A DNA stretch of 59,208 bases, filler included, from Fonticula-like sp. SCN 57-25 (Eukaryota): NCBI GenBank assembly GCA_001724245.1. It is 6 parts of 6 records of this genome, joined end to end, with 100 filler letters (N's around TTAATTAATTAA, not from the genome) between each part and the next. Parts side by side here need not be neighbours in the genome. Positions count along the whole stretch, not along the records: positions 37,958 to 47,082 come from MEDX01000271.1; positions 47,183 to 59,208 come from MEDX01000272.1; 4 more parts are not named here. One strand, 5' to 3'. Position numbers and translations under genes: made by a program. The notes below the pieces were generated by a model that was not told the DNA's origin, ran no database searches, and was given only the letters and a program-made list of their open reading frames with translations. Within the stretch, counting starts at the first letter, position 1. Each line of letters begins with the position of its first letter. Positions 23,128 to 51,288 of the stretch are shown piece after piece.

Positions 23128-23440
23128 AGAATTAGGGGACGCGTGGCTGACGCCCTTTCCATCGACAATTTCATTCAGTTTCTTCCAATACTCGCGCGGC
23201 AGAGCAGTGCTTTGCCGGCGTATTTTGTAGTTTAGTTGTACTGTAACATCGACAAATGGATGAAATATACATGTTATCGAGTGAAAACATTATGTTATTG
23301 TAAAATTGAACAAGACATATGATAGCTCAATCTTGCATGGAAAAATATGAAGTGTATCCAAAAATTACCCAAATGGCAAGAACGAGGCACATCGCCGTAA
23401 GGATATGTAAAAGATATTAAAACAAACCCGCCCACTTGAA

Positions 23441-26400: not shown

Positions 26401-27248
26401 CGTTGTCGGGCGTCGTGCACACACCGCTAAAGTGGTACATGTCCGCCACCGGCCTGTCCACGTGGATCGAGGCAGCGAGCGTGGAGAGCTCCTCGGCGGT
26501 CACAAGGGACTTTGTGCTCGAGATGGATAGGCGCGTCTTGACGTTGGTTTCGCCGTCCAGGTTTCTCGTCTCTACATAGCACTCGCCGTCGGGCGACGAT
26601 GAGGAAAGGCAGATAATGTCCGCCGGGATACTCTCGTCCATCTCCAGGCGAACAATGTCGCCGACTTTAAGGGCCTCCCAGTGCGTCTTGACCCACGCGC
26701 CATCCTTGAGCGTGTGCGTCGTGCTGCGGTTGATCTCAATGTCCGACTTCCACCGCTTCATATCCTCGTACATGTCCTTGAGGGCAGTCGCGCCAAGAAC
26801 AATCACGAGCGGGACGGCGGCCTACGCGGCGATATGGTCAGTACCAAAAGAGGGGGGGGGCGATCATGCGTACGATGCCGGCGGGCCATGCTCGGAGTTC
26901 GGGAATGAGCTGAAGGATTAGCATGATTAAAAAGTAAAAATTGGCCACACGGCGAAACTGCTCAAACAGATTCTTGGGCAAAAAAGTTAAAACGTTGTAC
27001 TTTGCCGTCACTACCTTGTTCGAGCAAAAGATGTCCGTGTCTTCCGACGGCAACGGTGGCGGGAAGGAGATCACGCGGCTCCCGTGGTTGAACTCCTTCT
27101 TGTCCCACGGCATCTTTAAAGATGTGGGCAGCCATTTAAACCACGATTTTCTCGGTTGCTCCTCGATCTCAAACTCGGCCACCGGCGCTGCCCCTTTGAG
27201 CTCGGCCGGCGCGGCGCCCACGTTGCTTGATGACGGATCCGTCGTCAT
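23441..27248 (-). CDS. P4-type ATPase (phospholipid flippase), multi-exon
   Basis: [66 protein letters not shown]. Confidence 0.95.
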
Positions 27249-27679
27249 TCCCACGGCGGAAGCCACGCGCGTCACCTCTACCGAATCTGGATTCGCGAAA
27301 CGATTGGAGGTGTCCCCAAGCTCTAAACTAACTTGCTGGGTCCACAACCAAAATGAGGGGACAGATCGCCAAGGCAGGGGGCGTGCGCCACTTGCTCTGG
27401 ATCGTTCGGTCGCGCGGTCGATGGCCTGGCTCCGCCGGACTATAAATCGGCCAATGTGCTCGCGCGCCAATCAGATCGCGATCTATATTTACGCATCGGC
27501 ATTACGTAGGAATTTTGCAAACTAGACGCAGTTTGCAGGTGGGTTTGCTTGTCGGCGCGCCAAATGTTGCGCATCGAGGGCGACCCGCGTCACTTTGACG
27601 ACGATGGCGTCGCGACAGAGACGAGCGAGGTGCAGGTGCGGCATGGGCGGTCGGCGTGCATGGTGTGTGCTAACCTCGG

Positions 27680-32717: not shown

Positions 32718-33865
32718 GTTGACGATCGATCACGTGGCCACGACCGTCTGCCGAGGATGACAAAGACCAGAATGCTACCTATGGACCGCACAGAGCCTTA
32801 GGACTGGTATTAGTGCTTGTAGTGGTTTGTTAACTAGCCGCGGAGGCCATCCGCCGGCCCACCGTGCGCAACTACCCCTGTCTCGTGCCGCATTACACCC
32901 GCCAGACAACCGCGGCAAGTTTCGCCTTCCCACACATTTCGATTGCGTCATCCAGCGCCACATGTGGTTCTCGGGGTGGCCGCATTTCTGTCCCCCCAAA
33001 GTTGTTTTCTTGGATAACCGAAAGCGCGGGTGTCTCTAGTGCCGCGTTGCGCGACAAGGGAGAACCTCGCTCGCGCATTTCCCTTTTTGCGTGCATTCGT
33101 ACCTGGGGAATTTTCGTCCTCGCGGAGCAGAGAGAGCGCGGGCGTTTCTCTCTCTTTTGAGCCTACTTTTATCTGTCGCCGCATCCCGCGGTCCAACCTT
33201 TGTACGTGCGTGAGGATCCCGTCTGGTCCGCCGCAACCCCGGTTGGTTGAGAGCAAGCTTCACCGTTGCTCCTCGCGGAGAGACAATTGTACCACTAGCT
33301 GTACCACTAGCAAGTGTTTTCTTCCTCGTTTTTTTCTTGACTTTTCTCCTGTATTTCCCTGCCGCCCTTTTGCGAGAGCGGTCTAGCCTGTCGATAGGCA
33401 AAGGAATCCCCCGTTTGGCATTGGTCAGACGACTGTAACGGGGACAAGGACTCGAGGCTGTACTTTTTCTATTTACGCTTCCTAGAAGGTCATTAGGTAC
33501 GTCACGGTTTGAGGGAAGACATCGTGTGGTTTGTGGGCGTCGTATCCTCGTGACCTTGGTGACCTTGGGGCGCGGGGGTGGGATCGAGGGGGTTTGTGTG
33601 ATGGCCCCGTGCGCTAGGCGCGTGAAAATGAAAAATGATACGGAGGCAGAAAAAGGGAGCGCCTGGTTAAGCTTCCTCTGCTCTTTGTCGGCCCTGTGTG
33701 TTGCTTTGTTTGTGAGGGTTTCCGCGTTTCCCGTCTTTGTTTGTCGATCTGTCGACTTTTTTTGCACCCATCTTGGCTCCCTGTAACTCTACAGCGAGCT
33801 CCCCTTTACGCCCCGCCCCTTTTTCTAACGCATGCCGTGAAAACCACTAGACCACACCACACTTA

Positions 33866-36418
33866 ATGTCTGATCCACGCGCCGACCTCGGTCTCTCGGA
33901 CGGATCTGTCGCGGCAGGCATGCCGGCGCAGCTCCCCGTGATGGACGGCACCTCGTCCCGCCTCATGCGCCGCAACTCGGACGGCGCGCTCGAGGACGAC
34001 CTCGCGCGCTTTAGCATCTCGAACAACTACAGCGATGGTCCCAGCGGCATCGACGAGCCCGTCTCCATCGCGTACGCCTTACATTCGAGCCTGGCTGTTC
34101 CATTGACTGACACCTTTTGTTTCAGTCGCCGCTTTTACGCCGACTCGATCCGCCGCGATCTTGGGAGTCCCGGTGTCCCGCCGCAGTTCAACGGGAGCTT
34201 CCTTGACGACGACGACTCGTTTGGCATGTACGTGCCCCAGGCTCCCGGCGGTGGCCCTGCTCGCCAGCAGCAGCAGCAGCAGCAGCAGGCCTCTGGCGAC
34301 AAGCCCAACATGGGTCGCCGCGACAGCATCGGCGCCCTTGACCTTGCTCCGCTTGCCCAGACGCGCCACGGTGCGCGCAGCCAGATGCGCGGCGAGATGC
34401 CCGCGTGGGACGCGATGCGCCAGGCGCAGCACCCGTCGGCCCCCTTTGACGCCGGGCAGCACCAGCAGCGGTACCAGTCGCCCGTGCTCCAGCAGCAGCA
34501 ACAGCAGCAGCAGCACGCCATGTTTATGCGCATGCAGCAGCAGGGCGCTGTGGACCCTTATGCGCGCCCCGTGTACGCGACTGAGCAGGACTATACGCAG
34601 ATGCTCGCTCCCGTCAGCATGCACGGCGGCTTCCCGCACTCGACGTCGCCGTCGTCGTACGCTGACGAGTGGCTTCCCGAGGCGACTTCGCCGGTGATGC
34701 GCCGCCCGCTGCCCAAGTCTGTGTCGGTGCCGAGCAACCTGACGGACGCTGGCGATGCGCCGCAGCAGCAGCAGCACGCGCAGCACGGCATGCGCGGCGG
34801 ATGGGACAGCCACGGCTACGCGGCGGGTCGCCAGATGGGCGGCGCGTGCCGCTACTGCAAGAACGTGGGCTGCACCCGCGGCGAGCGCTGCCGCTACAAC
34901 TCGCTGGCGCCTCCGCAGGGCCAGATGGGTGCCTACAACGGCGGTGGCGGCGGCTCGCTTCGCCACTCGCCCGACCCGTCGGGTCATGACGGCGCGCGCG
35001 ACAAGGCTGGCTCGCGCTCCAACTCCAAGTCGCCCGGCGGCCAGCACGGCGGCAAGAGCGGTGGCGGTATGCACAAGCGCGCGCCGAGCGAAGGGACGCG
35101 CTTCCCACCGCTCGAGCAGCTCCAGGGCCAGATCTACCCGCTGTGCCGCGACCAGCACGGCTGCCGTCACCTGCAGAAGAAGCTCGAGGAGGGCGACCCG
35201 GCGCACATTGAGATCATCTTTAACGAGATTTACGATCACATTCTCGAGCTCATGAGCGACCCCTTTGGCAACTATCTTTGCCAGAAGCTCTTTGCGCACT
35301 GCACGGACGAGCAAAAGGTGACGATCACGCGCAAGGCTGCGCCCGGCCTCGTCGCTGTGTCGCTCAACATGCACGGAACGCGCTCGGTGCAAAAGCTGAT
35401 TGACTGCCTCAACACGGACGAGCAGGTGCAGATCATTGTCGAGGCGCTGCGCGGCAGCGTCGTGCCGCTCATCAAGGACCTGAACGGCAACCACGTCATC
35501 CAAAAGTGCCTGAACCGCCTGCGCGCCGAGCAGAACCAGTTCATCTACGATGCCGTTACGCAGAACTGCGTGGCCGTCGCCTCGCACCGCCACGGCTGCT
35601 GCGTGCTGCAGCGCTGCATCGACCACGCCAACGAGGCGCAAAAGATCCAGCTCGCTACCGAGATCACGTACAACGCGCTGACGCTCGTCCAGGACGCCTT
35701 TGGCAACTATGTCGTGCAGTACATCCTCGACCTCAAGAATCCGCGCTTCTCGGACGCGCTCATCCGCCGCTTCCTCGGCCACGTCTACGAGCTGTCCCTC
35801 CAAAAGTTCAGCTCGAACGTGATTGAAAAGTGCATCCGCGTCGCCGAGCTTGACACGCGCCGCGGCCTGATTTCCGGCCTGCTCGACAAGGAGCGCCTGC
35901 CGCACCTCCTGCAGGACTCGTTCGCCAACTATGTCGTGCAGACGTCGCTGGACGTGTCCGAGCCCGAGCAGCACGCCGCGCTCGTCGAGATCATCCGCCC
36001 GATCCTGCCGTCCATCCGCCACCTTCCCTACTGCAAGCGCATCCAGTCCAAGCTGTCGCGCGACGTTGCCCAGCCTCGCGATGGCATGGCCCCGCCCAAC
36101 GGCATGATGATGGGCGGCCCGCCGTCGCAGCAGCAGCAGCAGGCGCCCATGATGATGATGGGCATGCACCCGCAGCAGGCGCAGCAGCAGCAGGCCATGC
36201 ACATGGGCGGCATGCAGCAGGTGCTCCTCCCGTACCCGATGCAGCAGGCGCAGCAGCAGGCCCAGCAGCAGGCGGCCTTTGGCATTCCCGGGCACATGAT
36301 GGCGCCGCAGTACATGCGCGCGCCCATGCACGCCATGAACGGCCAGCAGATGCAGCAGGCGCAGCAGGCGCACATGTACGCCGCCATGCACTCGCCGTCG
36401 ACCGGCGCAACAGAGTAG
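33866..36418 (+). CDS. PUF4: Pumilio/PUF RNA-binding protein, Puf4/Puf5 type, with Q-rich termini and a degenerate CCCH finger
   Basis: Eight PUF repeats with recognition sets CRQ, NYQ, TRQ, NHQ, CCQ, NYQ, SNE, NYQ; CRYCKNVGCTRGERCRYNS upstream; probable in-frame intron ~34072-34125. Confidence 0.9.
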   Translation: MSDPRADLGLSDGSVAAGMPAQLPVMDGTSSRLMRRNSDGALEDDLARFSISNNYSDGPSGIDEPVSIAYALHSSLAVPLTDTFCFSRRFYADSIRRDLGSPGVPPQFNGSFLDDDDSFGMYVPQAPGGGPARQQQQQQQQASGDKPNMGRRDSIGALDLAPLAQTRHGARSQMRGEMPAWDAMRQAQHPSAPFDAGQHQQRYQSPVLQQQQQQQQHAMFMRMQQQGAVDPYARPVYATEQDYTQMLAPVSMHGGFPHSTSPSSYADEWLPEATSPVMRRPLPKSVSVPSNLTDAGDAPQQQQHAQHGMRGGWDSHGYAAGRQMGGACRYCKNVGCTRGERCRYNSLAPPQGQMGAYNGGGGGSLRHSPDPSGHDGARDKAGSRSNSKSPGGQHGGKSGGGMHKRAPSEGTRFPPLEQLQGQIYPLCRDQHGCRHLQKKLEEGDPAHIEIIFNEIYDHILELMSDPFGNYLCQKLFAHCTDEQKVTITRKAAPGLVAVSLNMHGTRSVQKLIDCLNTDEQVQIIVEALRGSVVPLIKDLNGNHVIQKCLNRLRAEQNQFIYDAVTQNCVAVASHRHGCCVLQRCIDHANEAQKIQLATEITYNALTLVQDAFGNYVVQYILDLKNPRFSDALIRRFLGHVYELSLQKFSSNVIEKCIRVAELDTRRGLISGLLDKERLPHLLQDSFANYVVQTSLDVSEPEQHAALVEIIRPILPSIRHLPYCKRIQSKLSRDVAQPRDGMAPPNGMMMGGPPSQQQQQAPMMMMGMHPQQAQQQQAMHMGGMQQVLLPYPMQQAQQQAQQQAAFGIPGHMMAPQYMRAPMHAMNGQQMQQAQQAHMYAAMHSPSTGATE

Positions 36419-37957: not shown

Positions 37958-39549
37958 CCCGACGCGTCCGTCCCGCGCCTCCTCGATCAGCTGCTCCTCC
38001 TCCTCAATGCCCATCTCGCCCTCAAGCACCGAAACATGATCGCCGTCTTTGCCAGCAATCACGAGGGGTGCGAGCGCGTGTTCCCGGTGGAGGGTGGGGC
38101 GTCGGCCGACGGAATGACGGCGAGGGAAACGGCGGCATTTGTACGCGAGCGATAATGGAGATCGGGTGGGGATCGGGTTGGGATCAGGTGGGATCAGCGG
38201 GGTGGCCGGAAGCGGTGAAGTAGATCGGAGGAAAGGAATGATATTATGACAATGTTATGGCAATATTGTGACCGATAAAGTCACGTCGGTTGTGGTATAA
38301 AAGTGCTAATAGTGTGACAATATTAGTTTTTTATCGCATATAACTTATTCGTTTCAGTGTCAGAATTCTAACCATATCCTTGCTAGCTTGGTGGAAAGTA
38401 CGAGCCATTCGCCCGCGCACAGCTCCACGTGGCCCGCCGCCTCCGCGAACTCCTTTCCGAACCCGCTTCCGAAAGCCACCGTACGATACACGTGACTGTT
38501 CATATCCATTTCTCACGTGACCATTGCAGAGGCGAATATGGCCGCGGCGCTGTCCATGGCCCTGTGCTACATCAACCGCGTATCAAGTGAGCACGTGGCT
38601 ACCCACGTGGCCGCCCGTATTGTTGTTATTTCTGTTTCACCAGATGCGCAAGTCCAGTATATTCCCACAATGAATTGCATATTCTCTGCCCAAAAGGCGG
38701 TACGTAAAAGGAAAGAGGGGAGAAGAGGGAGGGACGAGGGATATATCAATATATCACGTGATGCTATGTGTTCACGTGACAATTGAAGTCTGTATTTATC
38801 CTTCACCGCGTGGCCATTACCATGTGACACTAATTCCATTTTAGGGAATTCCTATTGATATTTGTTCGCTATGCGTGAGCGACTCTCTTTTCCTCCAGCA
38901 GGCGTCCCACATCACGCGCGGCATCTACCACCGTGTCGACCACGTGGACGCCCTCTCGCACTACTTTCTCTCCCTCTACAGCGTGGACGGCCACGTGCGC
39001 CGCCACCTTCACATGCCCGAGAGCGCCGACGTTGACTTTCGCGCCGCGTGCTTTTGCCACAGGCGCGTCATCGACAGCGGTTTCGTGTGCTCTGTTTGCC
39101 TCAGCAGTGCGTGAAAGGGAAAAGAGGAAAGAAATAGGGAAAGAAAAGGGGATTGGGAAGTAGATTATAAAGTATTTTGATTGAATGAAATAGTATTGGG
39201 TCAGTGATTGTATGGTATATTGATGATTGTATGGTCTATATTGATACTATTGATGATTGTCATTGATGAAGGTTATTGATGACTATGTCATGTATCATCT
39301 ATCTGTATCATCTGCTCGTGATGTCTCTCCTTGTCTTTCTACTTACCCCTTTTTCCCAATCCAGTTTACTGCAACAGGAACGCCGTCGTATGCTCCACCT
39401 GTGGGTACGCCCCCTTACTTATCCCTTTACCCCATTAACACACACATAGTGTGCGGTTCGCGCTGCAGCGGCCACGCCAGGTAACAGCAAGGGCACCCCA
39501 GCAAGCGTCACTCCTCGGCACGCCACGCAACGGCCACGTGGCACAGTGA
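37958..39549 (+). CDS. TFB4: TFIIH subunit TFB4/GTF2H3 (p34), 5' truncated, multi-exon
   Basis: LNAHLAL, ALSMALCYINR, QYIPTMNCIFSAQK, FLQQASHITRGIY, VDFRAACFCHRRVIDSGFVCSVCLS, CSTCG. Confidence 0.93.
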
Positions 39550-39928
39550 TGCCCTTTTCGCCCCTCTTTCGATGTACATATTGGCTCATTAATAGAAATT
39601 CATCTTCTGTGTATTTCTCGTGGGTTTCTTTTCCTTTCCACACAAAAAGAATAAGAAAGAAAAAAAGTCTAGCAAAGCAGTTTTATCACCAAACAAAGAG
39701 CACCGGCGGCGAACCACGTGGCAGAAACGAGAGAGATAGCGGCAAAAAGCCGCCGCCAATCACGCGCCCCCAGTGGCCGCACGCACATGCGCGCATTGAA
39801 AGAATGATGAAAAGGAAAAAGAAAGAAAAAGTGACGTTTAAGATGCGATCGGCCGACACACGCGCCACAGCCGCCGCCCCGAAAGGAGACAACTACACCA
39901 CGTGGCCTTCCTCACCATCCCCGCCGTC

Positions 39929-40957
39929 TTAGCAGGGGAGGTTCTCGCTGGCCTTGGTGTTGAGCACGAGCGAGATAATCAGACCGTAAAGCGCAAGCAC
40001 TTCGGCGAAAATGAGAATGAGCACCATGGAAACGAACACACGCGGTTGCTATAAATAGAGAATGGCAGCGTGAGTATACATGGCCGTGTACTTTTATCGA
40101 ATGACGCACCTGGGCAGAGCCACGGACACCAGCATCACCGACAATACCGATGGAAACACCGGCGGCGAGACCGGCGAGGCCGACCGAGAGACCGGCACCG
40201 AGGGAAAGGAAACCGCTGTAAGGTGAGTTAGCGAAAACTGCAAACCGGACATGCACAAGAAAAGTAAAAAGAAAGAGGGCAAAAGGGCGATTGACACGCG
40301 ATGACCAAAGGCCAATCATGTGCAAAGTAGCTAAAGCGCAATAAGGCGCAAAGAAAACATAAAAGCACAAAAAAGAGAATAGAAGAGGAATGAAAGAGGA
40401 TCGGGGCCAAATGGGACGCAACGGTTCCGTAATCGGATTCCGTATCGCCATGGCATGCCCCGAGATTTTCATTGAAGGCAGAGTTTAGGACGTACGCGTA
40501 GAGAGTGTAGTCGGTTTTGACTAGAAAAAATAATGTCAGCAACCTGTCATGCAGCAGCGCGCGGTGAGCGTACGGGAAGAGGTGATGAGCACACCGACGA
40601 CGAGGCCGTAAATGGCGATAATACCCGCCATGACGACGGGAATAATCGACTTGATGGCGAGGTCGGGGCGGAGGACGGCGGTGGCCGCAACTCCGACGCC
40701 CGACTTGGCAGTGCCGTAGGCGGCGCCGAGCGCTAATAACAAGGAAAAGAGAAGCAAGCGTCAGCTCATTGATCGTATGACAGCGATTTTCAACGGCAAT
40801 ATCACGAGCGCAAATAATCAACGAGATCCCCTTTTCTTTCCCGCTACACTAAAACTGTCCAATGAAACGCACAGGTGAAGATGACGGCAGAGGCGACACC
40901 CATGACCGCAAAGAACGGCGCGTAGACCGGGCAGAGCTCCGTAGGCAAGGTCGACAT
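39929..40957 (-). CDS. VMA3: V-ATPase proteolipid subunit c (16 kDa), multi-exon
   Basis: [62 protein letters not shown]. Confidence 0.96.
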
Positions 40958-41230
40958 GGCTCTTTTTTTTTCCTTACTGCACAACCAATTTATAAGCAAA
41001 AATGGTCGGCAAAAAGGGCGTCAGCACAAAGAGCGCACCAAAAAAAGGAGAGAGAAAGGTGGGTTCTTTTTCGAGCGGTTTAGTTCGAAAAGAAGAGTGG
41101 GTGCCACGCGCTAGCCGAGATCCCTGAGAAGAAAGGGAAAGGGAAGCAAACAACAAGGTCCACTAAAAGGAAGAAAAAAGGGAAAAAGACGAGAGCGCAT
41201 ATGGGTCCAAAACTGGTTTTCCCCCCTTCT

Positions 41231-41310
41231 GATTGGCTCAATCCACTTTAATTTCAATCGCGATTGGACCAACGGGGCTGTGACAGGCGTGCTGGTTTGT
41301 TCACGTGGGA
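41231..41310. promoter_or_regulatory. CCAAT boxes and CACGTG upstream of VMA3
   Basis: GATTGG at ~41231 and ~41262, TCACGTG at ~41301. Confidence 0.4.
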
Positions 41311-41687
41311 TCGAATCTGATTTGATCGATGCGACAAGGCGGCGGAAAGCGTCGCGCGAAAGTAGAAGAAAGGGCGAAAAAGAGAAAAGAAGACTCAAAA
41401 CAAAGGAAAAATAAAGAGCAAAAGGTGGTTTTATTTTCCCTGCATTTTTTTGTATTCAAAACAAGAGGAAAATGTCCAAATAGGCACGATTGCCAGTTTC
41501 CCGCCAAGCCTCAGCGATCCATATGTCCATATTTTATTGATCCATACAATGAAATACCGTATGTGATATGCTAGATAGAACAAAATATAAATGTCGGCGC
41601 CATTCAAAGGGCAAAATCTCTACACGATTGACTACAAAACGCGTTGTCTCTGACTTTTTCTTTATCGTCTCTCTGATTTTACCGCGC

Positions 41688-43602
41688 TCACACGGCCAGC
41701 GAGTCGCCGCTCTCCCTCCGGACGCCCTCGGCCGGCACGCCCATGTCGCTCGAGCGGCGGCTGTGCGCGCTGGCTTCGCTGCTCCGCCGCGAGCGGAAGC
41801 GGTTGACGGCGCGCATCACCGTCATGAGGTTGGACATGTTGCGGATCGAGCCGATCGAGCGCGCAATATCATCGTCAGTCACCTCAATGCTAGAGAGAAA
41901 GGCGGGTCAGAGAGCAGAAACATTATTAAAGTGCAGCAAAAGACATAAAATAAGCAAAACAGTAGGCATAAAAAGCACAAATCAGACGACATATGCTTCC
42001 ACAAGTATTCCACATATCATCCCATGGCCCTGCAACTGCATGGCGTACCGGCTTCCGTTGCAGTTCTCCTCCGTGCTCGGCATGGCCACCGCCCCTTCCT
42101 CGGTCACCCACGGGTGAGCCTACCACGTGGCCGTGTCAGTCACCTTTCCCGCCAATTATTTCCCGCGCACCTTCATGTCATTGATGCTGAGGCGGTCCTC
42201 TGAGCTGCGCTGCATCATGCCCAAAATGAGCTGATGAGCGCCCTCGCCCACGTGGTTGGGCACCTCAATACTGCGCCTGTTTAGCAAGCCAAAAATACAA
42301 ACAAAAAGCGTACGGGTCGTTCTTGATGGCCTCGTAGGTCATGTAGACCGTGTCGGCCTTGAACGGCACGCGGCCGGTCAATAGGCAAAAGAGCGTCACG
42401 CCCATCGCCCAAATGTCGGTCCGCTTGGCCGAAAACGTCTCATTGTCGTCTACGAATGGCGAAATTAATGTCAAAATGAATATGAAAATCGCATGCGTTT
42501 AGGGTGCGTACCGCGCGCGACGAGCATCTCGGGCGCCATAAAGGCGGGGCTGCCGGCCGTCTTGCGGATGCCGTCCTCGCCATTGTTGTACTCCTACAAT
42601 AGTGTGAGTGCAAACTGGTCTTAGTTTGCGGGGCGTACCTCGGATACGCTAAAGTCGCAGAGGAGAACGTCGCCGGCGGCGTTGACGAGGAGGTTGTCGG
42701 GCTTGATGTCGCGGTGAGCAATGTCCTGGTAGTGAACTGCAAGCGTGTTAGAGTGCAAATAATGGCAAAAAGATGGCATTGTAAAAAAAATGGGTGGGAA
42801 GAGACAAAAATTACGGCTAAACACGCTGACAAAGCCCTGTAGCGTTGACCAGACCTTGAACCACAACAAAGAAAAAAATATTGATATATTAATTCGTACG
42901 GTATTCAACGCCGAGAAGCAACTGTCTAAACACCTTGCGGGCGTACGCGTCCGAGAGCGGCTCGGCGGCCTCCTTTCCGTCGAGGCTCATGACGACGCCG
43001 TTGGGGGCGAGCTCGAGCACTGCAGACAAAGATCACTTGCGTTAGACATCGCCACGCGCAATCCCGCTGCCGCGCGCGCACCCATGTAAAAAGCGTCCGT
43101 CTCGTCGTTGTTCAGCACCTCGATCAGCTTGAGCACGTGCCGATGCTGCAGCTTCTTCATGATGGCAATCTCGCGACGGATAATGTCAAGCGGATCCTTC
43201 TGCGCCACAGGCTAACAAAAAAACGTCAATTAAAAAAAGAATAAATAAAGAGGAGCGGTCGTACCGGGGCGCCCGGGGGACGGCGGCCCATCAGGCGAGC
43301 ACCGCCAGCCTGACGCTGCAGGCGAGCCTTGCTAACAACCTTCATGGCCTGCAAATACAACGGTCAAAAGGGAAAGCGTCACAAAAAATGATATAAAAAC
43401 GTACGAATAACTGCCCAGTCTCGCTGTCGGTTACGCGAAAGACGCTGCCGAAGGCGCCTTCGCCGAGCTTGCCGTGCACCATGTACTGGTTGATCTGCTC
43501 GCCATCGTCGACATCGCCATCGGCGCCGGTGACGTTGGTCGTCTCGCCGCGGAACTCGACCGTCGGCGTGACGTTGATCTCGGGAGCAGCGGCGGTCGCC
43601 AT
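41688..43602 (-). CDS. Ca2+/calmodulin-dependent protein kinase kinase (CaMKK/Ssp1-like), multi-exon
   Basis: INQY..GEGAFGSV, Arg/Pro-rich insert, REIAIMKKLQH, HRDIKPDNLL, DFSVS, AGSPAFMAPE, DIWAMGVTL; C-terminal EVTDDDIARSI..VMRAVNRF autoinhibitory/CaM-binding-like segment. Confidence 0.88.
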
Positions 43603-44231
43603 GGCTGCTTTCAGAGAAAAGATAGAGGGAGGGGAGGGCACAGCGTCAGTTGCACGTCCGGATCCCGAATGCGCAGTGACGGAACAAACACGCTGTGGCT
43701 GTTTTGAGTTCCTGGGATGCAACCAATCAGGACGCGATGAATTGCCTATTTGGGACAAACTGTTCCTAATATGGTCGTCGTGCTGCGGCTTCTGATGCGC
43801 GATTGGATGGAAACGGCGGGAAATTTCAAATGCGGAAGGGGAACAATCCAAAGAATGCCTGTACATAATTATGGATAGAGTAAACCGCGTCTGTAGACGC
43901 TTCACACTGTAATACCGCAACGCAACAATGTCGCAAACAGTATGATTATCGATGTAAGCGCACAATACTGCGTATATTACAGTACTCGTTGGTTCTGAAT
44001 TCCTCTCTTTTACGACCCCAAACGCGTCAGGGATGGAAAAGCAGGCATATACACACAAAACTCATTAACTAAACAATAAATATAACCAAACCGGCTTGAC
44101 CCATGCACTTGCGGCTCCACTACCGCATAGCTGCACTCGCAAGCTCGGTATATTCAGGGTCTTACATGTCTTCAAATGGTAGCACGTGATCAAATCACGT
44201 GGATTTACCCGCGCGCACGCATCGCCTCGAG

Positions 44232-47082
44232 ATGGGCGATCGGTCGTCGTGGTTATTCAATGAGGGCGGCGGCGGTGGAGGCGGACCACCGTCCGCGCCT
44301 CGTCCTCTGCCTCCTTCATCTCTTTCTTCTGCCGCTGTACCACCCCCTTTCACTCTTCCTTCGCCCGAGCAGGCTGCCTACCTCGCATCCCTGATGCCGA
44401 CGGACCCCCGCCGGGATCCCCGCATGGCGAGCAGCGGCGCCGGCGCCGCGCGCGGAGCCGACGCGCCCGTTGACCCCCGTCATGATCCCCGCATTGCCGC
44501 GGCAGCAGCGGCGGCGGCAGCGGCGACTATTGCGGCGGCGGGATCCCACGGCGTTGCATCGAGTGGGTTCCTCTTTGGTGTTGGCGGGCCGACACCAACA
44601 GGCACTATGGACTACTCTACTGCTGCTACCGCCGCTGCCGCTGCTGCTGCCGCCGCCGCCGCCGCCGCCATTGATGACGATTCAATTGGTGGCGGCGCGA
44701 GGGGAGATGCGGGGTACGGCCGGGACCGCGACGCACCGCGGAGAGGCAGCGGATCAACCTCGCAGGAAAAGGAGCGTCGTCCCTCCGAGTCGGACAGACA
44801 CGTCCACCGTCCACGTGGTCAGTATGACTCTCCACGTGGCCGTGATGACCTCCCACGTGGACGCGATGACGCCCGCGATTCTCATTCACGTGGACGCGAC
44901 GGCCCCTGGTCGCGCGACGCCGATAGATACTCACCTTCGTCATCACGCGAGCCCCGTGGATCATCCCCACCACGTGGCCGTCAACATGATTCTCGCGGGA
45001 AGCCGCGGGAGCGCTCCCTCTCGCCGCCGCGCCGCCCAAGCACACCCTCTGAATCTGGATCCACAACCGACCGATCCGGATCTGACAAGAAGCGCGCCGC
45101 TGACGCTCCCTTGTCGCACGTTTCGCCTCCTCTGAAGCGGATGTCGTCGGGCGGCGTGAACGCTGTGCGAACTGCGCCGCCGCCGGTGGTGCGGGATTCG
45201 GTGGCGGTGGCGACGGCGGAAAGGAAGTCGCCGGCGCCGCTGTCGGGGATGCCAAAGATACCGACGCTCAAGACGCCGTCTGCAAAGTCACCAGTGTCAT
45301 CAAGTACGACCACTACGTCAAGTTCATCAAAGACACCATCATCAAGTGAGCCAAAGACATTGACACCGACGTCGTCAAGTGCACCAAAGTCATCGACACC
45401 GACGTCATCGAGTGCATCAAAGACACCAACTGGATCAAGTGTACCAAAGACACCAACGACGGTATCAAGTGAGAAGACGCTGGCGTCATCTGTATCAAAG
45501 TCGACATCAGGAGGTGAATCAAAGACGCCAACGTCATCAAGTGTGACAAAGACATCAAGTGCGTCCCCGGCGACGTCAAGTGTGACAAAGCCATCGCCTT
45601 CAAGTACGTCAAAGGCGCCGACGGCGTCAGTGCCAATTACAACGCCAAAGCCAATCACTGCGCCGGCAAAGGCGCCTTCATCGGCTCCGATCACTGTTAC
45701 CAAGCCCAAGCCAACGACACCCGCTGAACCCAAACCTTCTACGCCAATTACGTCATCAAATGCTCAATCTACGTCATCGGTCACGCTGCCAACGCCGCCG
45801 ACGCCACGAGTGGTCAACGTCGACCACGCATCATCATCTTCATCGACGCCATCATTGACATCATCACCGTCGTCAGCAATGACGTCATCGTCTAATTTGA
45901 ACAGGAAGACGGTCGAGCAGCAGCTCTTGGACGACCGCGCGACGCGCCTCTTTATGGAGCGCCTGCACGACAAACTGGCGGCGCATCCGTCGGTCAAGAG
46001 TGGTGACGTTGGCGGCGTCGACGAGTATGGGACGATCGTGTTGCGCGACGCGGTAAAGTGGTGGCCGCCGTGGCGGTACGCCGACAAGCACTCGATCAAC
46101 CTCGAGGACAAGGTCGTTCTAAAGTGCGCTTGCGGAACAGAAAATGGACTGTTTTAGTAATGGGATTGGATGGGAATTAATGAAATCAGGGATCAGATGT
46201 CTTTTGTTTGTTTGTTTGGCACTTTACGCTTTCATTGTCGCTGCTTTTCCACTTGTTCTCACATCACGTGTTCCAGACCTGCGCCCGACTTTGCTCGCTT
46301 GGCGCGCAAGGCCAAGAACAGCGTGAGCATCACGCTGACCGACTACTTGTCCAGCGTCGATGCCCTCATCAAGCGCGTCCTCTTCCTATGGGCGCCCTGG
46401 ACGGAGCAGCACGTGGCCGCTGTGGTGCGTTTTCATTGCCCCACGCCCACCAAACATTTGCTAACCTACTGCCGACTCGTCCAATAGGAATTCCGCAATG
46501 CCTTTAAAGAGTCGCTTTTCGCGCCCGATGTGCCCGCCCACGTGGTCCAATTTGTAGCTGACGCGCATCTCCGCGAGGAGGCGATCGCGCCAATGGCCAT
46601 GCCGCGCCGCCGCGCCATCAAGCAGCGCTTCACGACGTCATCAGAGTGCGCCCACGTGGCACTTATATTGCCGCTGACGTGTCGCGCGCCAAAAATAGGT
46701 TTGAGATGATGCGGACACGGCTGGAAGGGATCGCGTCGGCTTACGGCGACCAATCACGTGTCTTCTTCAAGTACCTGACGATCTCGCTGATCGCGAGCGA
46801 CAGTCAGCGCAACTTTTTGCGGCGTGTCAGCGTTGAGGCGGTGCCGCTCTACGGCCAAGTCATCAAGGAGCCGTCATCTCTCATGGTACGTGGCCACGTG
46901 GTGAAGTGTTGTGCACTATGGCACTATTGATATTCTATCTGTCCATGTATGCCCCTTACTGACACGTGATTGGTTTGCAGGACTTGGCTGCGCTTGTCGA
47001 CGCGTCCGGCCCGTTTGATGTTGTCCAATTCGCGACCGAGTTTTACCTTATTATAGAAAACTGCTTTTACTTTAATGCTATG
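44232..47082 (+). CDS. Large low-complexity protein with C-terminal bromodomain, truncated by contig end
   Basis: DPRRDPR motifs, R/S/D-rich and S/T/P-rich tracts, then spliced exons ending NFLRRVSVEAVPLYGQVIKEP..FATEFYLIIENCFYFN (bromodomain-like). Confidence 0.65.
45296..45610 (+). repeat. Degenerate coding repeat (tcatcaagt...aagacacc) encoding SSS..KTPT units
   Basis: More than ten (a)tcaagt units at roughly 30-nt spacing. Confidence 0.65.
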
Positions 47083-47182
47083 NNNNNNNNNNNNNNNNNN
47101 NNNNNNNNNNNNNNNNNNNNNNNNNNTTAATTAATTAANNNNNNNNNNNNNNNNNNNNNNNNNNNNNNNNNNNNNNNNNNNN
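47083..47182. other. Artificial contig linker
   Basis: 44N-TTAATTAATTAA-44N. Confidence 0.98.
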
Positions 47183-48271
47183 ACCTACAACCTCAACAAA
47201 ACCGTCATGAACCTCGTCGAGGAATACCAAACAATCCCGGAATTCCCAGGAAACGTCTATTTCGATACTGGTTCATATCATCGTGCCGTCGATGACGATC
47301 TTTTTACCGCGTGGCGCCCTTTTCACCCCCTATCACCTGGTGACTATTTTGGGCTCGACCTTTTATATGTGAGGGCGCACGCGAGGATTTCATTGGTGTG
47401 CAGCCAGCCAATCGAAATGTTTTATATAGAGACAAGTGTCGGTGGTCACAAGTGGTCACGTGCTCTCTATACTGTTCATCAATTACTCACCCTAACACCG
47501 GGGATTTCGCTGTATGAGCTGCAGCTGCCCACGTCATCAGTTTTCCGCTTTGTCCGCTTCGTGGCGGGGCCGAGATTTGGCGGGAAAGCGATAAGGGCGG
47601 ATGTGTATGACGTCAGAGAAGGCTGGTTTCTGATTGGCTCAGTGCCGGTTTTCGGTGTCAGCGTTTACTCGGGGGCGTTCTTGGAAAGAAGGCCGGAAGG
47701 CGAAGAATATGCGACATTGGAAAGATGGCGCGCAAATGTCGTCGAACTTATGAGGTCAAATCCTGTCCACGTGGTCGGTGATAATTCTGTCCACGTGGCC
47801 GGTGAGCGTGTTGGTGGCGGGAAAGCGGAAGAGGCCATGTCGCTTTCGCCGCTCGCTCTGACCACGTGGACGGTCGATCAGAATGTGCTGCACGTGTACA
47901 GCGCAAATGGCGGGAAATTCTCTTTGCTTGGAAGCATGACGATTGGTCAGAAAACGGCCGCGCCACTTTTGGTCACGTGCCGCTTATCTTCCGATGCGCG
48001 CCAAGTGTCCAATCACAACGAAGCGGGTTTATTCATCATCATTGACGTCATGCTTCAGGATGGCACGTGGATTCACGGGGCTCAGGTGATCGTGTTCTCT
48101 TCTGGCACGCATGGCCCTGAGCTGCAATTGGTCAGGTTGACGTATCAGATGCCGGTGCAGTTGATCGTGTTTTCTATTAATGTGTTGCATCATCATGGTA
48201 TGGTTGTTATCGATGATATCGCGGTGTCGGAGCAGGTGGTTGTTGATGATAGGGAAAATGATAGGAAATAG
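47183..48271 (+). CDS. C-terminal part of a paralog of the adjacent glycosyltransferase-like gene; two putative carbohydrate-binding beta-sandwich domains
   Basis: YHRAVDDDLFTAW...GDYFGLDLL and FRFVRFVA shared with the 49050-51288 gene; terminal DGTWIHGAQ..FSSGTHG...VIDDIAV CBM-like segment; 5' end lost at contig start. Confidence 0.6.
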   Translation, partial: TYNLNKTVMNLVEEYQTIPEFPGNVYFDTGSYHRAVDDDLFTAWRPFHPLSPGDYFGLDLLYVRAHARISLVCSQPIEMFYIETSVGGHKWSRALYTVHQLLTLTPGISLYELQLPTSSVFRFVRFVAGPRFGGKAIRADVYDVREGWFLIGSVPVFGVSVYSGAFLERRPEGEEYATLERWRANVVELMRSNPVHVVGDNSVHVAGERVGGGKAEEAMSLSPLALTTWTVDQNVLHVYSANGGKFSLLGSMTIGQKTAAPLLVTCRLSSDARQVSNHNEAGLFIIIDVMLQDGTWIHGAQVIVFSSGTHGPELQLVRLTYQMPVQLIVFSINVLHHHGMVVIDDIAVSEQVVVDDRENDRK

Positions 48272-48639
48272 GAGATAAAAGGGAAAGTGGTGGTGCAATA
48301 TGTGCATTGTTATATAGAAATTTTGTCGGAATTTGATATGGTTTTTATTGTTTTTATTGTTTTTTTACTTTTTTTCTTACTTGTTTTTTACTTGTTTTTT
48401 ACTTGTTTTTCACTTTTTCATATTTGTTTTTCTTATCATTTTCGTGGAATACTTCCACTTTGTTTGTTCAACTATCGCATTGATTACTGTTATCTAAAGT
48501 GGCATGCTGACCGATCGTCGCTCACGTGATCGCCACTCAAGGTAGTACTGCACTTTTTTTTCTATAAACAATCACTCATATTTGAAAGTTGTTTCTTTGC
48601 TTGGCGCTCTCTTTGTGTCCTTAATAAAGCAAGTAAATT

Positions 48640-48850
48640 GATATTGACCCTATTGACTTTAGATACAGTATTGACCATAATAACTTTGATATTGACCATA
48701 TCGTCTCATAGAGTATTGAAACACATATCCATATCAGATATTACAGTATCAAATACTGTAATGTACTTGGATTGACCATCATATCTGCATCATATAGATA
48801 CATATCAGATATCTAATATATGACCATCATATTGACCATCATATAGATAT
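48640..48850. repeat. Degenerate ATTGACCAT(CATAT) repeat in AT-rich intergenic region
   Basis: attgacc(a) units at ~48643, 48670, 48691, 48771, 48832 and related variants. Confidence 0.6.
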
Positions 48851-49049
48851 TCATTGTTGACACAATGATGAAATTCTCTTTTTTGTTGACACATTCACTT
48901 TGAAAATACTTCTTTGATATCATGGACAAACATGCCAAAATATAATCAATTTTGTTCTAAATTGATCTAAAACACTCATTTCTGGTCCAAATTGTATTCT
49001 TTTTTCATCCAAATATCATTTTATTCTCCTTTTCTCTTCCTTACAATAG

Positions 49050-51288
49050 CTAATATGCCACTCTTCTCGCCGCACTCGCACACCTCCCCACACTCACCCC
49101 CCCCACCCTAAACCTCTCCTCTGCCATTCCACTCTCCGCCACAAACCTCACATACCTAAACACACATTCCTTCACATTCCCAACCAACACATATTCATAT
49201 TTATACCCACTCATACCATTTATACCATTCTTGGAATACCCACTTTTAGTATCAAGTTGCCATGTGCACCGTGACTCATCCCAGAAATCATTCTCATCGC
49301 GCACTTGAACACGCAACTTTTCCTGGAATTCATGATAGACGGTCACGTGCAATGACGTACATGCGTCAGCATTCAAAATATCAAGGCCGAAAAAGTCGCC
49401 TTGGCGGATACCGACAGAAGATTCCCAGTAGGTGGATGGGTCAGGGTCTACGGCCATGTGGTAGGGGTGGGCGAGGAAGGGCGTGCGATCGTAGAGGAGT
49501 GAGGCACGTGACTCGACGACGGTGATGTTGTCGCCGCGGTGGTAGAGGAAGGAGGAGGGGGAGGGGAAGTTGCTGGGGTTGGTCAAGAAAAGACACGTGT
49601 CGTCATGGCAGGGGGCACTATTGAAAAGGTATGAGGGTTAGGAAAAGTGGCATAAAAAGATATGAAAAGAAAGGACAAACATAAAAAGTGGCATGAAAAG
49701 GTATGAAAAGTATCATAAAAAGGTATGAAAAGGTATGAAAAGTGGCATAAAAGAGTTCATAAAGAGTGTCATAAAAAGTGTCATAAAAAGTGTCATGGCA
49801 TAAAAAGTGACATGAAAAGTGTCATAAAAAGGTATGAAAAGTGGCATGAAAAGGTACGAAAAGTGACATAAAAAGGTATAAAAAGTCATAAAAAGGTATG
49901 AAAAGTGGCATAAAAAGATATGAGGGACAAACATAAAAAGGTATGAAAAGTGTCATAAAGAGTGTCATGAAAAGTGCCTTGGCATAAAAAGTGGCATGAA
50001 AAGTGTCATAAAAAGGGTCATGGCATGAGAAGAGGCATGAAAAGTGTCATATAAAGGTATAAAAAGTGTCATAAAAAGTGTCATAACAAACTACCATACA
50101 AACTACCATAAAAACGTTGTTCCCAGCGAGGCGTGTGGTGCGCGACGGGAAAGAGCGGGTCATTTGCCTTGAGGCGGTCGTACAAAATGCGCGCGCCGGC
50201 AGTCTATAAAAACGCACAAAAAGGCACAAAAAAGCGCGCCAAATCACATTTTAGACTCATTTTTGCACATTTTTGCTTTAAAAATGCGTCAAAAACGTAC
50301 CATGTGATGCATATTGCGTGCAATTCCGCCTTGTTCGCTACTAAACCCGAACCGCTCCTCTAGCTCGACGAGCGTCGTCTCGAGCTGGTACGGCACCTGG
50401 TTCATCCAGGTGGCAAAGTACATGTCGGCGAGCAGCGCATCCGTCTCGTTCAGGTAGCGCAGCTGCTCCATGAAGCGCACGACGGCGGCCTTGTCGACAA
50501 TGGCGCCGGTGCCGAGCCACGAAAAGCCCGAGTGCATATTCACGGCTGCAGGCGCGCAACAAAAAAACACGTCAGCGGCGGCGACCGCGGATCTGATCGG
50601 CAGAATCTGATCGTACCGGGTTCGAAAAATGACCATGCCCATGTCAGGTAGTGCACAAACTCGTTCGTGATGGTGTGCAGGAGATGCGGGCTGCGGAGAA
50701 AGCTAGAGTACATGGAGCGCAGCCAGTCGTTGCGCCAATCGTCATCCTGAAAGTAGCAGTAGTCGCCGGCGGACATGAGGCATGCGGTGTAGCGCGCGAC
50801 AAAGTACTTGTTTTCCTTGGAGTTGATGATGCGCATCGGGATCGGGAGCGGCGCGGCAAAATCCTGTGCGGGAAAGGAAAGAAAAGATCAGCGAGCGCGC
50901 TAAAGATCGCCAAGGCGTACGGATTCGGTTAGGGCGCGATCTACGTTGTTGTTCCAGACGACCATGTCGACAGTGAAATCAGAGTAGCGCTGGACAGACT
51001 CGACCACTTTCTGAAGCGAGTCCACGCGAATGTAGCCGAGCAGAATAATAGAAAGCCTATTTTTGCGGCAAAATGCGCACGCAGGTATCAGTCAATGCCG
51101 GCTCGCGCGCGTCAGTTGGCGATCGCGTACTTTTTTGGAAGACGAATGTTGCGCTTTCCAAATTCATTCTCACTTGATTCGCCCGAGCGAACAGCCGAAA
51201 TAATAAAATACTGCAAGACAAGGATAGCCAAAATTGCAAAGCACAGCCGCTGCGTGCGGTTGAGCCGCGTGAGGCCCCGGGCTAGCAT
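49050..51288 (-). CDS. Type II membrane glycosyltransferase-like protein (GT-A fold) with C-terminal discoidin/CBM-like domain, multi-exon
   Basis: N-terminal signal anchor (RLCFAILAILVLQYFII), LSIILLGY, VVWNNN, CYFQDDDW (DxD), FSWLGTGA, LADMYF; C-terminal YHMAVDPDPSTYW..GDFFGLD. Confidence 0.7.
49620..50112. repeat. ~490-bp degenerate minisatellite (AAAAGTGKCAT / AAAAGGTATG, 10-11 nt) forming an intron
   Basis: Dozens of aaaagtg(g/t)cat and aaaaggtatg units in tandem. Confidence 0.9.

Follow-up and report, generated by a model that had tools for sequence, protein, structure and literature searches.

Iterated words of other genomes and the CACGTG zone

Overprinted DNA words that bend protein sequence are known from bacteria, in the form of the highly iterated palindrome HIP1 and the uptake sequences, and CACGTG is known as the canonical site of basic helix-loop-helix (bHLH) zipper dimers in opisthokonts, with clusters described for Cbf1, USF and Myc-Max, as the CLEAR elements of TFE/MITF and as circadian E-boxes. 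Here we describe the distribution of CACGTG in a stretch of 59,208 bases from Fonticula-like sp. SCN 57-25, hereafter the window, which consists of six contigs of 9-12 kb separated by spacers of the form N44-TTAATTAATTAA-N44. In contig 5 and the first 2.5 kb of contig 6 (37958-47082 and 47183-49700; 11,643 nt, GC 0.52), which we call the zone as distinct from the remaining 47,065 nt, or rest, the word is roughly tenfold more frequent than expected and runs in patches through exons, introns and spacers. The finding is real and strong, and the known kinds of feature closest to it are the iterated palindromes and the E-box clusters.

The word resembles HIP1 (GCGATCGC, cyanobacteria) in being a GC-rich palindromic octamer in tens-to-hundreds-fold excess, in lying inside as well as between genes, and in deviating mostly at its outer bases. 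One HIP1 study puts the over-representation at 15- to 300-fold and argues for selection (PMC5861425), and another reports deviations biased to the outer bases (PMC4390886). HIP1 is bacterial, hyper-abundant genome-wide and tied to orphan methyltransferases, whereas the word described here is eukaryotic, occupies patches of about 1 kb in part of 59 kb, and shows no excess in control genes. The analogy with HIP1, drawn in an earlier note on this DNA, holds for the type of word and the fold excess (83-fold in the zone, 14-fold elsewhere in the 59 kb), but apparently not for a uniform genome-wide spread, as the coding sequence tested outside the zone carries 4 sites against 3.05 or 4.22 expected from two codon shuffles.

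Homotypic E-box/G-box clusters, the targets of bHLH-zipper and basic leucine zipper (bZIP) dimers, share with this locus the CACGTG core, the flank classes CCACGTGG and (G)TCACGTGA(C), and the placement of some sites close to start codons and CCAAT boxes. Known clusters of this kind lie in promoters, enhancers and first introns with few sites per locus, whereas here, by the gene models, exons take 27 of the 41 zone sites, densities rise to 8-11 per kb and the making of sites has altered amino acids. The uptake signal sequences of Haemophilus and the DNA uptake sequences of Neisseria are likewise short words overprinted on coding DNA, preferentially where the protein is free to vary; unlike the present word they are non-palindromic, genome-wide and spread by uptake-biased transformation, a route without a known counterpart in protists. 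Full-text literature searches returned nothing comparable for a eukaryote, and among the papers that one of them listed none contains both CACGTG and nucleariid.

Excess, shape and coding cost of the word

The earlier note had counted about 41 CACGTG sites by hand in 38426-49599, a span that, as it stated, covers two contigs. Our recount gives the identical number, with 70 sites in the whole window, and reproduces the low counts given for comparison (4 in 20860-27250 and 0 in the PUF open reading frame (ORF) at 33851-36418). The 70 sites compare with 20.54 +/- 4.59 in 100 dinucleotide shuffles of the window, the maximum of which was 34 (0/100 reach 70). By first-order Markov simulation the zone should hold 3.7 +/- 2.0 sites (300 simulations), against 41 observed, and the rest 17.1, against 29 observed. 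Densities in contigs 1-6 are 0.65, 0.65, 0.55, 0.60, 3.29 and 1.41 per kb, and in contig 6 the first 2.4 kb carry 11 of the 17 sites and the remaining 9.6 kb carry 6. Of all k-mers, CACGTG distinguishes zone and rest most clearly (P 6e-18). When the 70 sites were placed uniformly, neither 41 in 11.2 kb nor 12 in 1.5 kb was ever reached (0/5000), and dropping 4 tandem copies left this unchanged (0/5000).

Within the zone the sites are themselves unevenly spread. They form patches at 38426-39904, 44183-44976, 46265-46968, 47457-48069 and 49344-49599, and leave CACGTG-free stretches of 1.0-1.4 kb each at 39905-41301, 43140-44182 and 44977-46264. The sub-counts of the earlier note, 12 in the first patch, 7 each in the third and fourth and 5 in 44812-44976, were recovered. 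Its term hyper-iterated is apt for the patches, which measure about 0.6-1.5 kb and carry 8-11 sites per kb, but not for the whole 11 kb with its three empty stretches. Tandem duplication is ruled out as the cause, since at most 4 of the 41 sites are tandem copies. Tandem Repeats Finder and a repeat search identified only two site-bearing duplications, one with 2.9 copies of a 21-nt unit at 44810-44870 and one with 2 copies of a 24-nt unit at 47759-47805, and outside these the flanks of the sites are unrelated to each other.

The word itself is a symmetric YCACGTGR, which takes the form CCACGTGG in GC-rich and TCACGTGA in AT-rich context. These account for 30 and 5 of the 70 sites respectively, and the bases at -1 and +1 are complementary at 39 of the 70, against 26.3 expected from marginal base counts; complementary flanks were also read by eye at 8 of the 14 non-coding zone sites. 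No 8-mer of the window is more strongly over-represented than CCACGTGG, which has 30 sites where a third-order model gives about 1.9. Under a first-order Markov model it occurs 18 times in the zone against 0.2 expected, an 83-fold excess, and 12 times in the rest against 0.8, a 14-fold excess, so that a weaker signal is present in all contigs. The word is also sharp, as the 30 perfect octamers of the window face 40 copies of all 24 one-off variants combined, and these variants, counted by position pair (18 at the outer pair, then 5, 12 and 5), are biased to the outer base. One-off hexamers in the zone are at background with the exception of CACGTT (1 vs 6.5; P 0.012, uncorrected, for 19 words). 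This depletion was considered as a mark of conversion drive and set aside as non-discriminating, because selection would deplete one-off variants too.

Gene models were built from Pfam matches, translations and GT..AG borders read by eye from the sequence, and they place 27 of the 41 zone sites in exons, 8 in introns and 6 in spacers or untranslated regions (UTRs). The exonic sites are read as His-Val at 13 positions, as xCA-CGT-G at 8 and as xxC-ACG-TG at 4, with 2 ambiguous. For codon shuffling we assembled a zone set of 1433 codons in seven stop-free segments, taken from TFB4 (four exons), a low-complexity gene (exon 1) and contig 6 (two ORFs), and a reference set of six Pfam-supported ORFs elsewhere in the window (3500 codons). 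The zone segments hold 20 CACGTG, against a mean of 5.64 after synonymous shuffling within genes (maximum 13) and of 2.39 after shuffling of codon order (maximum 8), with 0/1000 reaching 20 in either case. The reference ORFs hold 4, against 3.05 (synonymous) and 4.22 (codon-order), and thus show no excess. As both codon shuffles fall short in the zone, the excess there has two layers, one in codon choice and one in amino-acid sequence, and the enrichment persists through dinucleotide, synonymous-codon and codon-order shuffling alike.

The second layer is visible in the proteins. The zone segments contain 11 His-Val pairs, 9 of them spelled CACGTG; the reference set, larger by a factor of 2.4 in codons, contains 4, with 2 spelled CACGTG. 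All His-Val (3), Thr-Trp (2) and Thr-Cys (1) pairs of the 362-aa ORF in contig 6 use codons that form the hexamer. In TFB4, His-Val occurs in the contexts QLHVARR, SEHVATHVAAR, VDHVDAL, DGHVRRH and, at the C terminus, NGHVAQ*. For the five TFB4 pairs that precede the C-terminal one, the same columns hold His-Val in 2, 0, 1, 0 and 0 of 120 homologues, a set dominated by Aspergillus and Penicillium rather than balanced. The closest named relative has His-Val at none of the five tested columns, and yeast TFB4 and human p34 differ there too. The shuffle excess, the clean control genes and the near-absence of His-Val in TFB4 homologues together indicate that the pressure acts on DNA and has changed proteins.

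The readings of CACGTG proposed in the earlier note were largely borne out: His-Val (SSEHVATHVAAR), Thr-Trp and Thr-Cys, and also xCA-CGT-G. In the reference set CAC (0.90) and GTG (0.45) are favoured codons, whereas CCA (0.06 of Pro) and CGT (0.04 of Arg) are rare, as the note had said of the latter two; its reading of Pro-Arg-Gly stands only if the frame of a 655-aa ORF is the true one. We retain this frame at 44812-44976 as plausible from frame composition. A codon-likelihood preference for the alternative His-Val frame in that interval was rejected, as it reflects the GC-rich first codon positions of a frame rich in Arg, Pro, Gly and Asp. The claim that the signal is at DNA level is sustained by its survival of the shuffles, its non-tandem nature, its presence in exons in three frames, in introns and between genes, and the unusual His-Val pairs of TFB4.

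Proposed binding-site arrays and rival origins

We propose, tentatively, that the patches of about 1 kb are arrays of binding sites kept for a dimeric CACGTG reader, for example a bHLH-zipper protein. A symmetric 8-bp word with a sharp core, indifferent to gene anatomy and paid for in amino acids, is what leads us to interpret the reader as a dimer that acts on DNA. Such a protein would read YCACGTGR on double-stranded DNA, and its likeliest identity would be a bHLH-leucine-zipper factor of the Cbf1/USF/Myc-Max class; CCACGTGG and TCACGTGA(C) we take to be the flank classes of Myc-Max-type and Cbf1/USF/TFE-type factors. The word would be maintained in patches some 0.6-1.5 kb long, with 8-11 copies per kb, that disregard gene anatomy, with promoter, exon, intron and 3' spacer all bearing sites, and the patches would represent factor-loaded stretches of chromatin unlike classical promoters. 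In coding DNA the word would be placed wherever the protein tolerates it, the usual solution being His-Val, as CAC and GTG are both favoured codons, and the less common ones Thr-Cys or Thr-Trp and the rare-codon xCA-CGT-G. We infer that the word is bound by protein, probably of this class, and that it is kept by selection on binding rather than by repair bias. More speculatively, nucleosome exclusion, insulation or damping of recombination in loaded patches would fit the lower GC content at third codon positions (GC3) of the zone genes (0.58-0.73, against 0.76-0.89 in the reference genes).

In favour of this proposal, the placement of some sites is promoter-like: one pair lies 31-49 nt before an ATG, and a single site at 41302, beside CCAAT boxes, lies about 345 nt upstream of the ATG of a V-ATPase c-subunit gene. 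The absence of internal sites from this highly conserved subunit, against three in the neighbouring kinase gene, fits a regional pressure filtered by protein constraint. Several points weigh on the other side. We know of no transcription-factor site clusters that fill exons at such density, and the exonic share of the sites is high. The zone genes (TFB4, the kinase, the low-complexity protein and two orphan ORFs) have no obvious common regulation, and the V-ATPase gene stands in the middle of the zone without an internal site. In L001, a 1756-nt metagenome contig near-identical to part of contig 6, all seven sites of the 362-aa ORF are kept at 97.1% identity, an outcome with a neutral chance of about 0.4, so that the comparison is without power. 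Word counts and shuffles cannot tell selection and drive apart, since either process moves the same equilibrium. The sample, finally, is small, at 59 kb of metagenome contigs.

The exonic location and the domain-like spread set these arrays apart from any described regulatory cluster. It is possible, if doubtful, that the locus is a eukaryotic equivalent of the bacterial iterated palindromes, in which CCACGTGG/TCACGTGA is written by a DNA-level force across chromosomal patches, at the price of altered amino acids and rare codons, and labels domains of chromatin or recombination; what would be labelled then are low-GC3, CACGTG-rich as against high-GC3, CACGTG-poor patches, and not genes one by one. 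Were the patches factor-loaded chromatin, a common transcription-factor word would be usable as a structural label at the scale of domains, with force enough to alter housekeeping proteins, TFB4 among them. Were they the product of repair or conversion drive, eukaryotes would have their first example of it.

Such a drive, of a kind like HIP1 or the uptake sequences, is the main rival to binding-site arrays, and we consider it rather unlikely. A bias in repair, in methylation-linked mismatch correction or in conversion would create the palindrome, purifying selection would filter it, and the word would need no function. Drive explains the overprinting equally well. The hallmarks of overprinted words are seen here: exons, introns and spacers are treated alike, three frames and rare codons are used, and variable protein positions carry the sites. 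The word is a GC-rich palindromic octamer whose excess (83-fold and 14-fold) comes near the range given for HIP1 in PMC5861425, and its one-off deviations are biased to the outer bases, as PMC4390886 has it for HIP1. Against drive stand the strong patchiness of the sites, with no excess in the coding sequence tested outside the zone and three empty stretches of 1.0-1.4 kb within it, and a CpG observed/expected ratio of 1.14-1.28 in all contigs, which is no depletion and gives no sign of methyl-C decay. For HIP1 itself, PMC5861425 argues for selection and not drive. Nor is a drive of this sort known from eukaryotes.

An improbable alternative to selected arrays is a mixed bin or a chimeric contig, in which contig 5, together with contig 6 at its left end, comes from a second, related organism, or from another locus joined through a tandem repeat at 49.6-50.1 kb; the zone would then be a sampling artefact and the word genome-wide in that CACGTG-rich organism. 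The window does consist of metagenome contigs, and GC3 is lower in the zone genes. Furthermore, the CACGTG density of contig 6 drops exactly at a tandem array of about 400 nt (49680-50086), a typical misjoin point, and the AT-rich left end of this contig correlates poorly in tetranucleotides with the other contigs (0.38-0.55). However, contig 5 correlates with them as well as contig 1 does (0.77-0.85), and the V-ATPase, kinase and TFB4 exons score well with a codon table learned from the other contigs, which argues for one genome. The AT-rich intron style is common to all contigs, and CCACGTGG is over-represented 14-fold in the others too. That the CACGTG-rich sequence is real is clear from its presence in independent contigs of four metagenome runs and in L001.

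Still less probable is an element that acts in RNA, where self-complementary CACGUG/CCACGUGG copies would pair within a transcript, for example to join intron ends, or bind an RNA-binding protein. By the gene models every zone site could be transcribed, as exon, intron or UTR, and for several intronic sites the nearest splice site is 9-20 nt away. In two introns that carry two copies, the fold brings the copies into pairing, and one of these, the 146-nt TFB4 intron, is more stable than its shuffles (-41.9 against -32.3 kcal/mol; z -2.72, 1/200). This stability comes mainly from its purine-rich and pyrimidine-rich halves, however, and the other three of four folded stretches do no better than shuffles (z -0.58, -0.40, +0.56), the copies being unpaired in the third, whose borders are a few bases off the true intron. 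The majority of sites lie in exons, and there no use for pairing is apparent. RNA pairing is thus possible for a few intronic pairs and not in general.

Of what the earlier note proposed, recombination-hotspot domains in the style of fission yeast, built from the break-activating motifs CACGTG, ATGACGT and CCAAT, are the weakest reading and in our view very improbable. The recurrence of companion motifs that the note had reported is confirmed in part: ATGACGT is enriched in the zone (11 vs 1.6 expected; TGACGT 23 vs 6.1) and CCAATC weakly so (16 vs 7.4), but 7 of the 14 listed ATGACGT/TGACGTCA positions, half of that signal, fall in one repeat-coded stretch at 45402-45882, and CCAAT is not enriched (31 vs 28.3). 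CACGTG is not known to be among the fission-yeast hotspot motifs, break-activating motifs are expected from established theory to erode through biased gene conversion, and GC3 is lower in the zone and not higher, which speaks against strong GC-biased conversion. Nor does proximity to AT-rich islands, which the note had linked to the sites, discriminate, since contig 1 has a similar island fraction (0.16 vs 0.15) and only 6 sites.

That nothing special has happened, and that chance, base or codon composition or simple duplication produced the pattern, can be dismissed, for while CAC and GTG are favoured codons and two small tandem duplications carry sites, the observed counts were never reached in the controls (0/100, 0/1000 twice, 0/5000) and no more than 4 of 41 sites are tandem copies.

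Gene map, source organism and further observations

The genes, sites and patches of the zone are listed in the table below.

Table. Genes, CACGTG sites and patches of the zone, in window coordinates.
Feature	Position	Strand	Remarks
TFB4 (TFIIH p34) gene	37958-39549	+	at least 6 exons, 5'-truncated at contig end; Pfam Tfb4 E 2.9e-34, 2e-18
Patch A, 12 sites	38426-39904		TFB4 gene and the spacer behind it
Patch A, exonic sites	38426, 38592, 38604, 38941, 38992, 39535		six sites in TFB4, all His-Val
Patch A, intronic sites	38489, 38514, 38755, 38773		four sites in TFB4, TCACGTGA-type
Patch A, convergent 3' spacer	39715, 39899		two sites
V-ATPase proteolipid c-subunit gene	39929-40957	-	Pfam ATP-synt_C E 1.8e-11, 1.3e-5
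Protein kinase gene	41691-43605	-	Pfam Pkinase; three CACGTG sites
Kinase sites	42124, 42249, 43134		42124 at 3' end of an intron of about 50 nt; 42249 and 43134 exonic, both His-Val
Site pair CACGTGatcaaatCACGTG	44183-44201		before ATG 44232 of the next gene; promoter or 5'UTR position
Low-complexity protein gene, 655-aa ORF	44190-46157	+	Arg/Asp/Ser-rich stretch in exon 1
Five sites in exon 1 of low-complexity gene	44812-44976	+	(Pro/Ser)-Arg-Gly in the 655-aa frame; 3 of 5 in the 21-nt tandem unit
Patch C, seven sites	46265-46968	+	3' exons and introns of low-complexity gene; spacing 68-145 nt
Patch C, intronic sites	46265, 46895, 46963		46265 directly before a 3' splice site; 46895 and 46963 near both ends of one 95-nt intron
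Patch C, exonic sites	46410, 46539, 46653, 46755		frames of 46539 and 46653 ambiguous
Contig 5/contig 6 spacer	47083-47182		two records, not necessarily neighbours in the genome
Patch D, seven sites	47457-48069	+	362-aa open frame; pair 47768/47792 in the 24-nt duplication
Patch D, readings	47457; 47768, 47792, 47891; 47863, 48064; 47974		S-R-A; H-V; T-W; T-C
AT-rich 3' spacer site	48523		TCACGTGA; between the two contig-6 ORFs
Sites in open frame 49050-49637	49344, 49505, 49594	-	H-V, S-R-A, T-C; enrichment ends at 49599

The kinase we take to be CaMKK-like, from HPWVTEEG as read by eye. In patch C the match of one exon to the Bromodomain family is weak (E 0.15, below cutoff). A composite CCAATCACGTG, in which a CCAAT box overlaps the E-box, occurs there at 46750-46760 and 46963-46973, on opposite strands and 213 nt apart. 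The two contig-6 ORFs (47183-48271, plus strand; 49050-49637, minus strand) are convergent paralogues with 30% identity over 110 aa (E 6e-7) and a common start ...CHDD(R/T)CLF... right after an intron. Neither belongs to a Pfam family at E 0.01, and a search of 5.8 billion proteins found no relative of the 362-aa ORF among proteins of 199-634 aa. A metagenome scan with this ORF identified one locus, that of L001. It does not connect to contig 5: the 775 nt that precede the match in L001 have no counterpart anywhere in the window, and none at the end of contig 5. Positions 1-50 of L001 may be the remnant of a sequencing adapter, recognised by eye from recall, in which case its first bases are non-genomic. 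The AT-rich spacer at 48600-48860 carries words of the type ATTGACC(A/C)T (TTGATATTGACC...) at least 6 times. Upstream of the minus-strand ORF, the array at 49680-50086 repeats a 12-nt unit (CATAAAAAGTGT) about 34 times with 69% matches; it could be an intron or mark a misassembly.

Two proteins bear on the source. A HAS1-type helicase in contig 2 has its closest named protein in Fonticula alba (79% identity), with chytrids and zygomycetes next, and a TFB4 exon has its closest named homologue in the nucleariid Lithocolla globosa (60%), from which the organism is probably an uncultured, nucleariid-like member of Holomycota. The DNA of the window is near-identical to contigs of one bioreactor metagenome run, and parts of it recur in three more runs from two other studies, two of these having identical tables; a nucleariid-like protist is present in several bioreactor and wastewater data sets. 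Among the 40 listed of 227 differences between the runs and contig 5, none falls inside a CACGTG site; strains that diverge by roughly 3-5% are seen in these runs.

A scan of viral contigs for triple CCACGTGG found 25 loci with at least 3 copies within about 80 nt, five of them with 8-26 copies. As at this locus the octamer recurs locally, but the viral arrays are tight and regular, their copies spaced by multiples of 12, 16 or 21-23 nt across 50-900 nt. They were rejected as relatives of the locus: they have no relation to its eukaryotic genes, and their pattern is one typically seen in iterons or coding repeats. Those of L002, L004, L017, L019 and L022 hold 8-26 copies in 170-900 nt at multiples of 12 nt, often at contig ends, and may be iterons or a coding repeat.

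Two further candidates from the rest of the window were abandoned. CCAATCA(G) was considered as a second promoter word, yet 10 of its 30 copies belong to one 30-nt coding repeat in contig 1 (5368-5863), which carries CTGATTGG(C/G)CGCCAA ten times and is the source of most of the over-representation of CCAATCA. A helicase/TPT pair in contig 2 is reminiscent of a sex locus, but the genes between resemble, by translation, a nucleoside-diphosphate kinase and an LDB-like protein, and among the translations of the interval, read by eye without a family library, no HMG-like ORF was seen.

The longer introns (for example 38700-38845 and 39106-39362) are AT-rich, purines prevailing in the 5' half and pyrimidines in the 3' half; the two halves are able to pair end to end, and these introns correspond to the skew-flip islands of the earlier note. 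Two intron-rich stretches, 38227-38407 and 46088-46274, are each represented in the source-like run by contigs of two versions. These versions differ from each other at 15-16 positions in about 180 nt, but their flanking exons are identical, which suggests two haplotypes or strains with fast-evolving introns.

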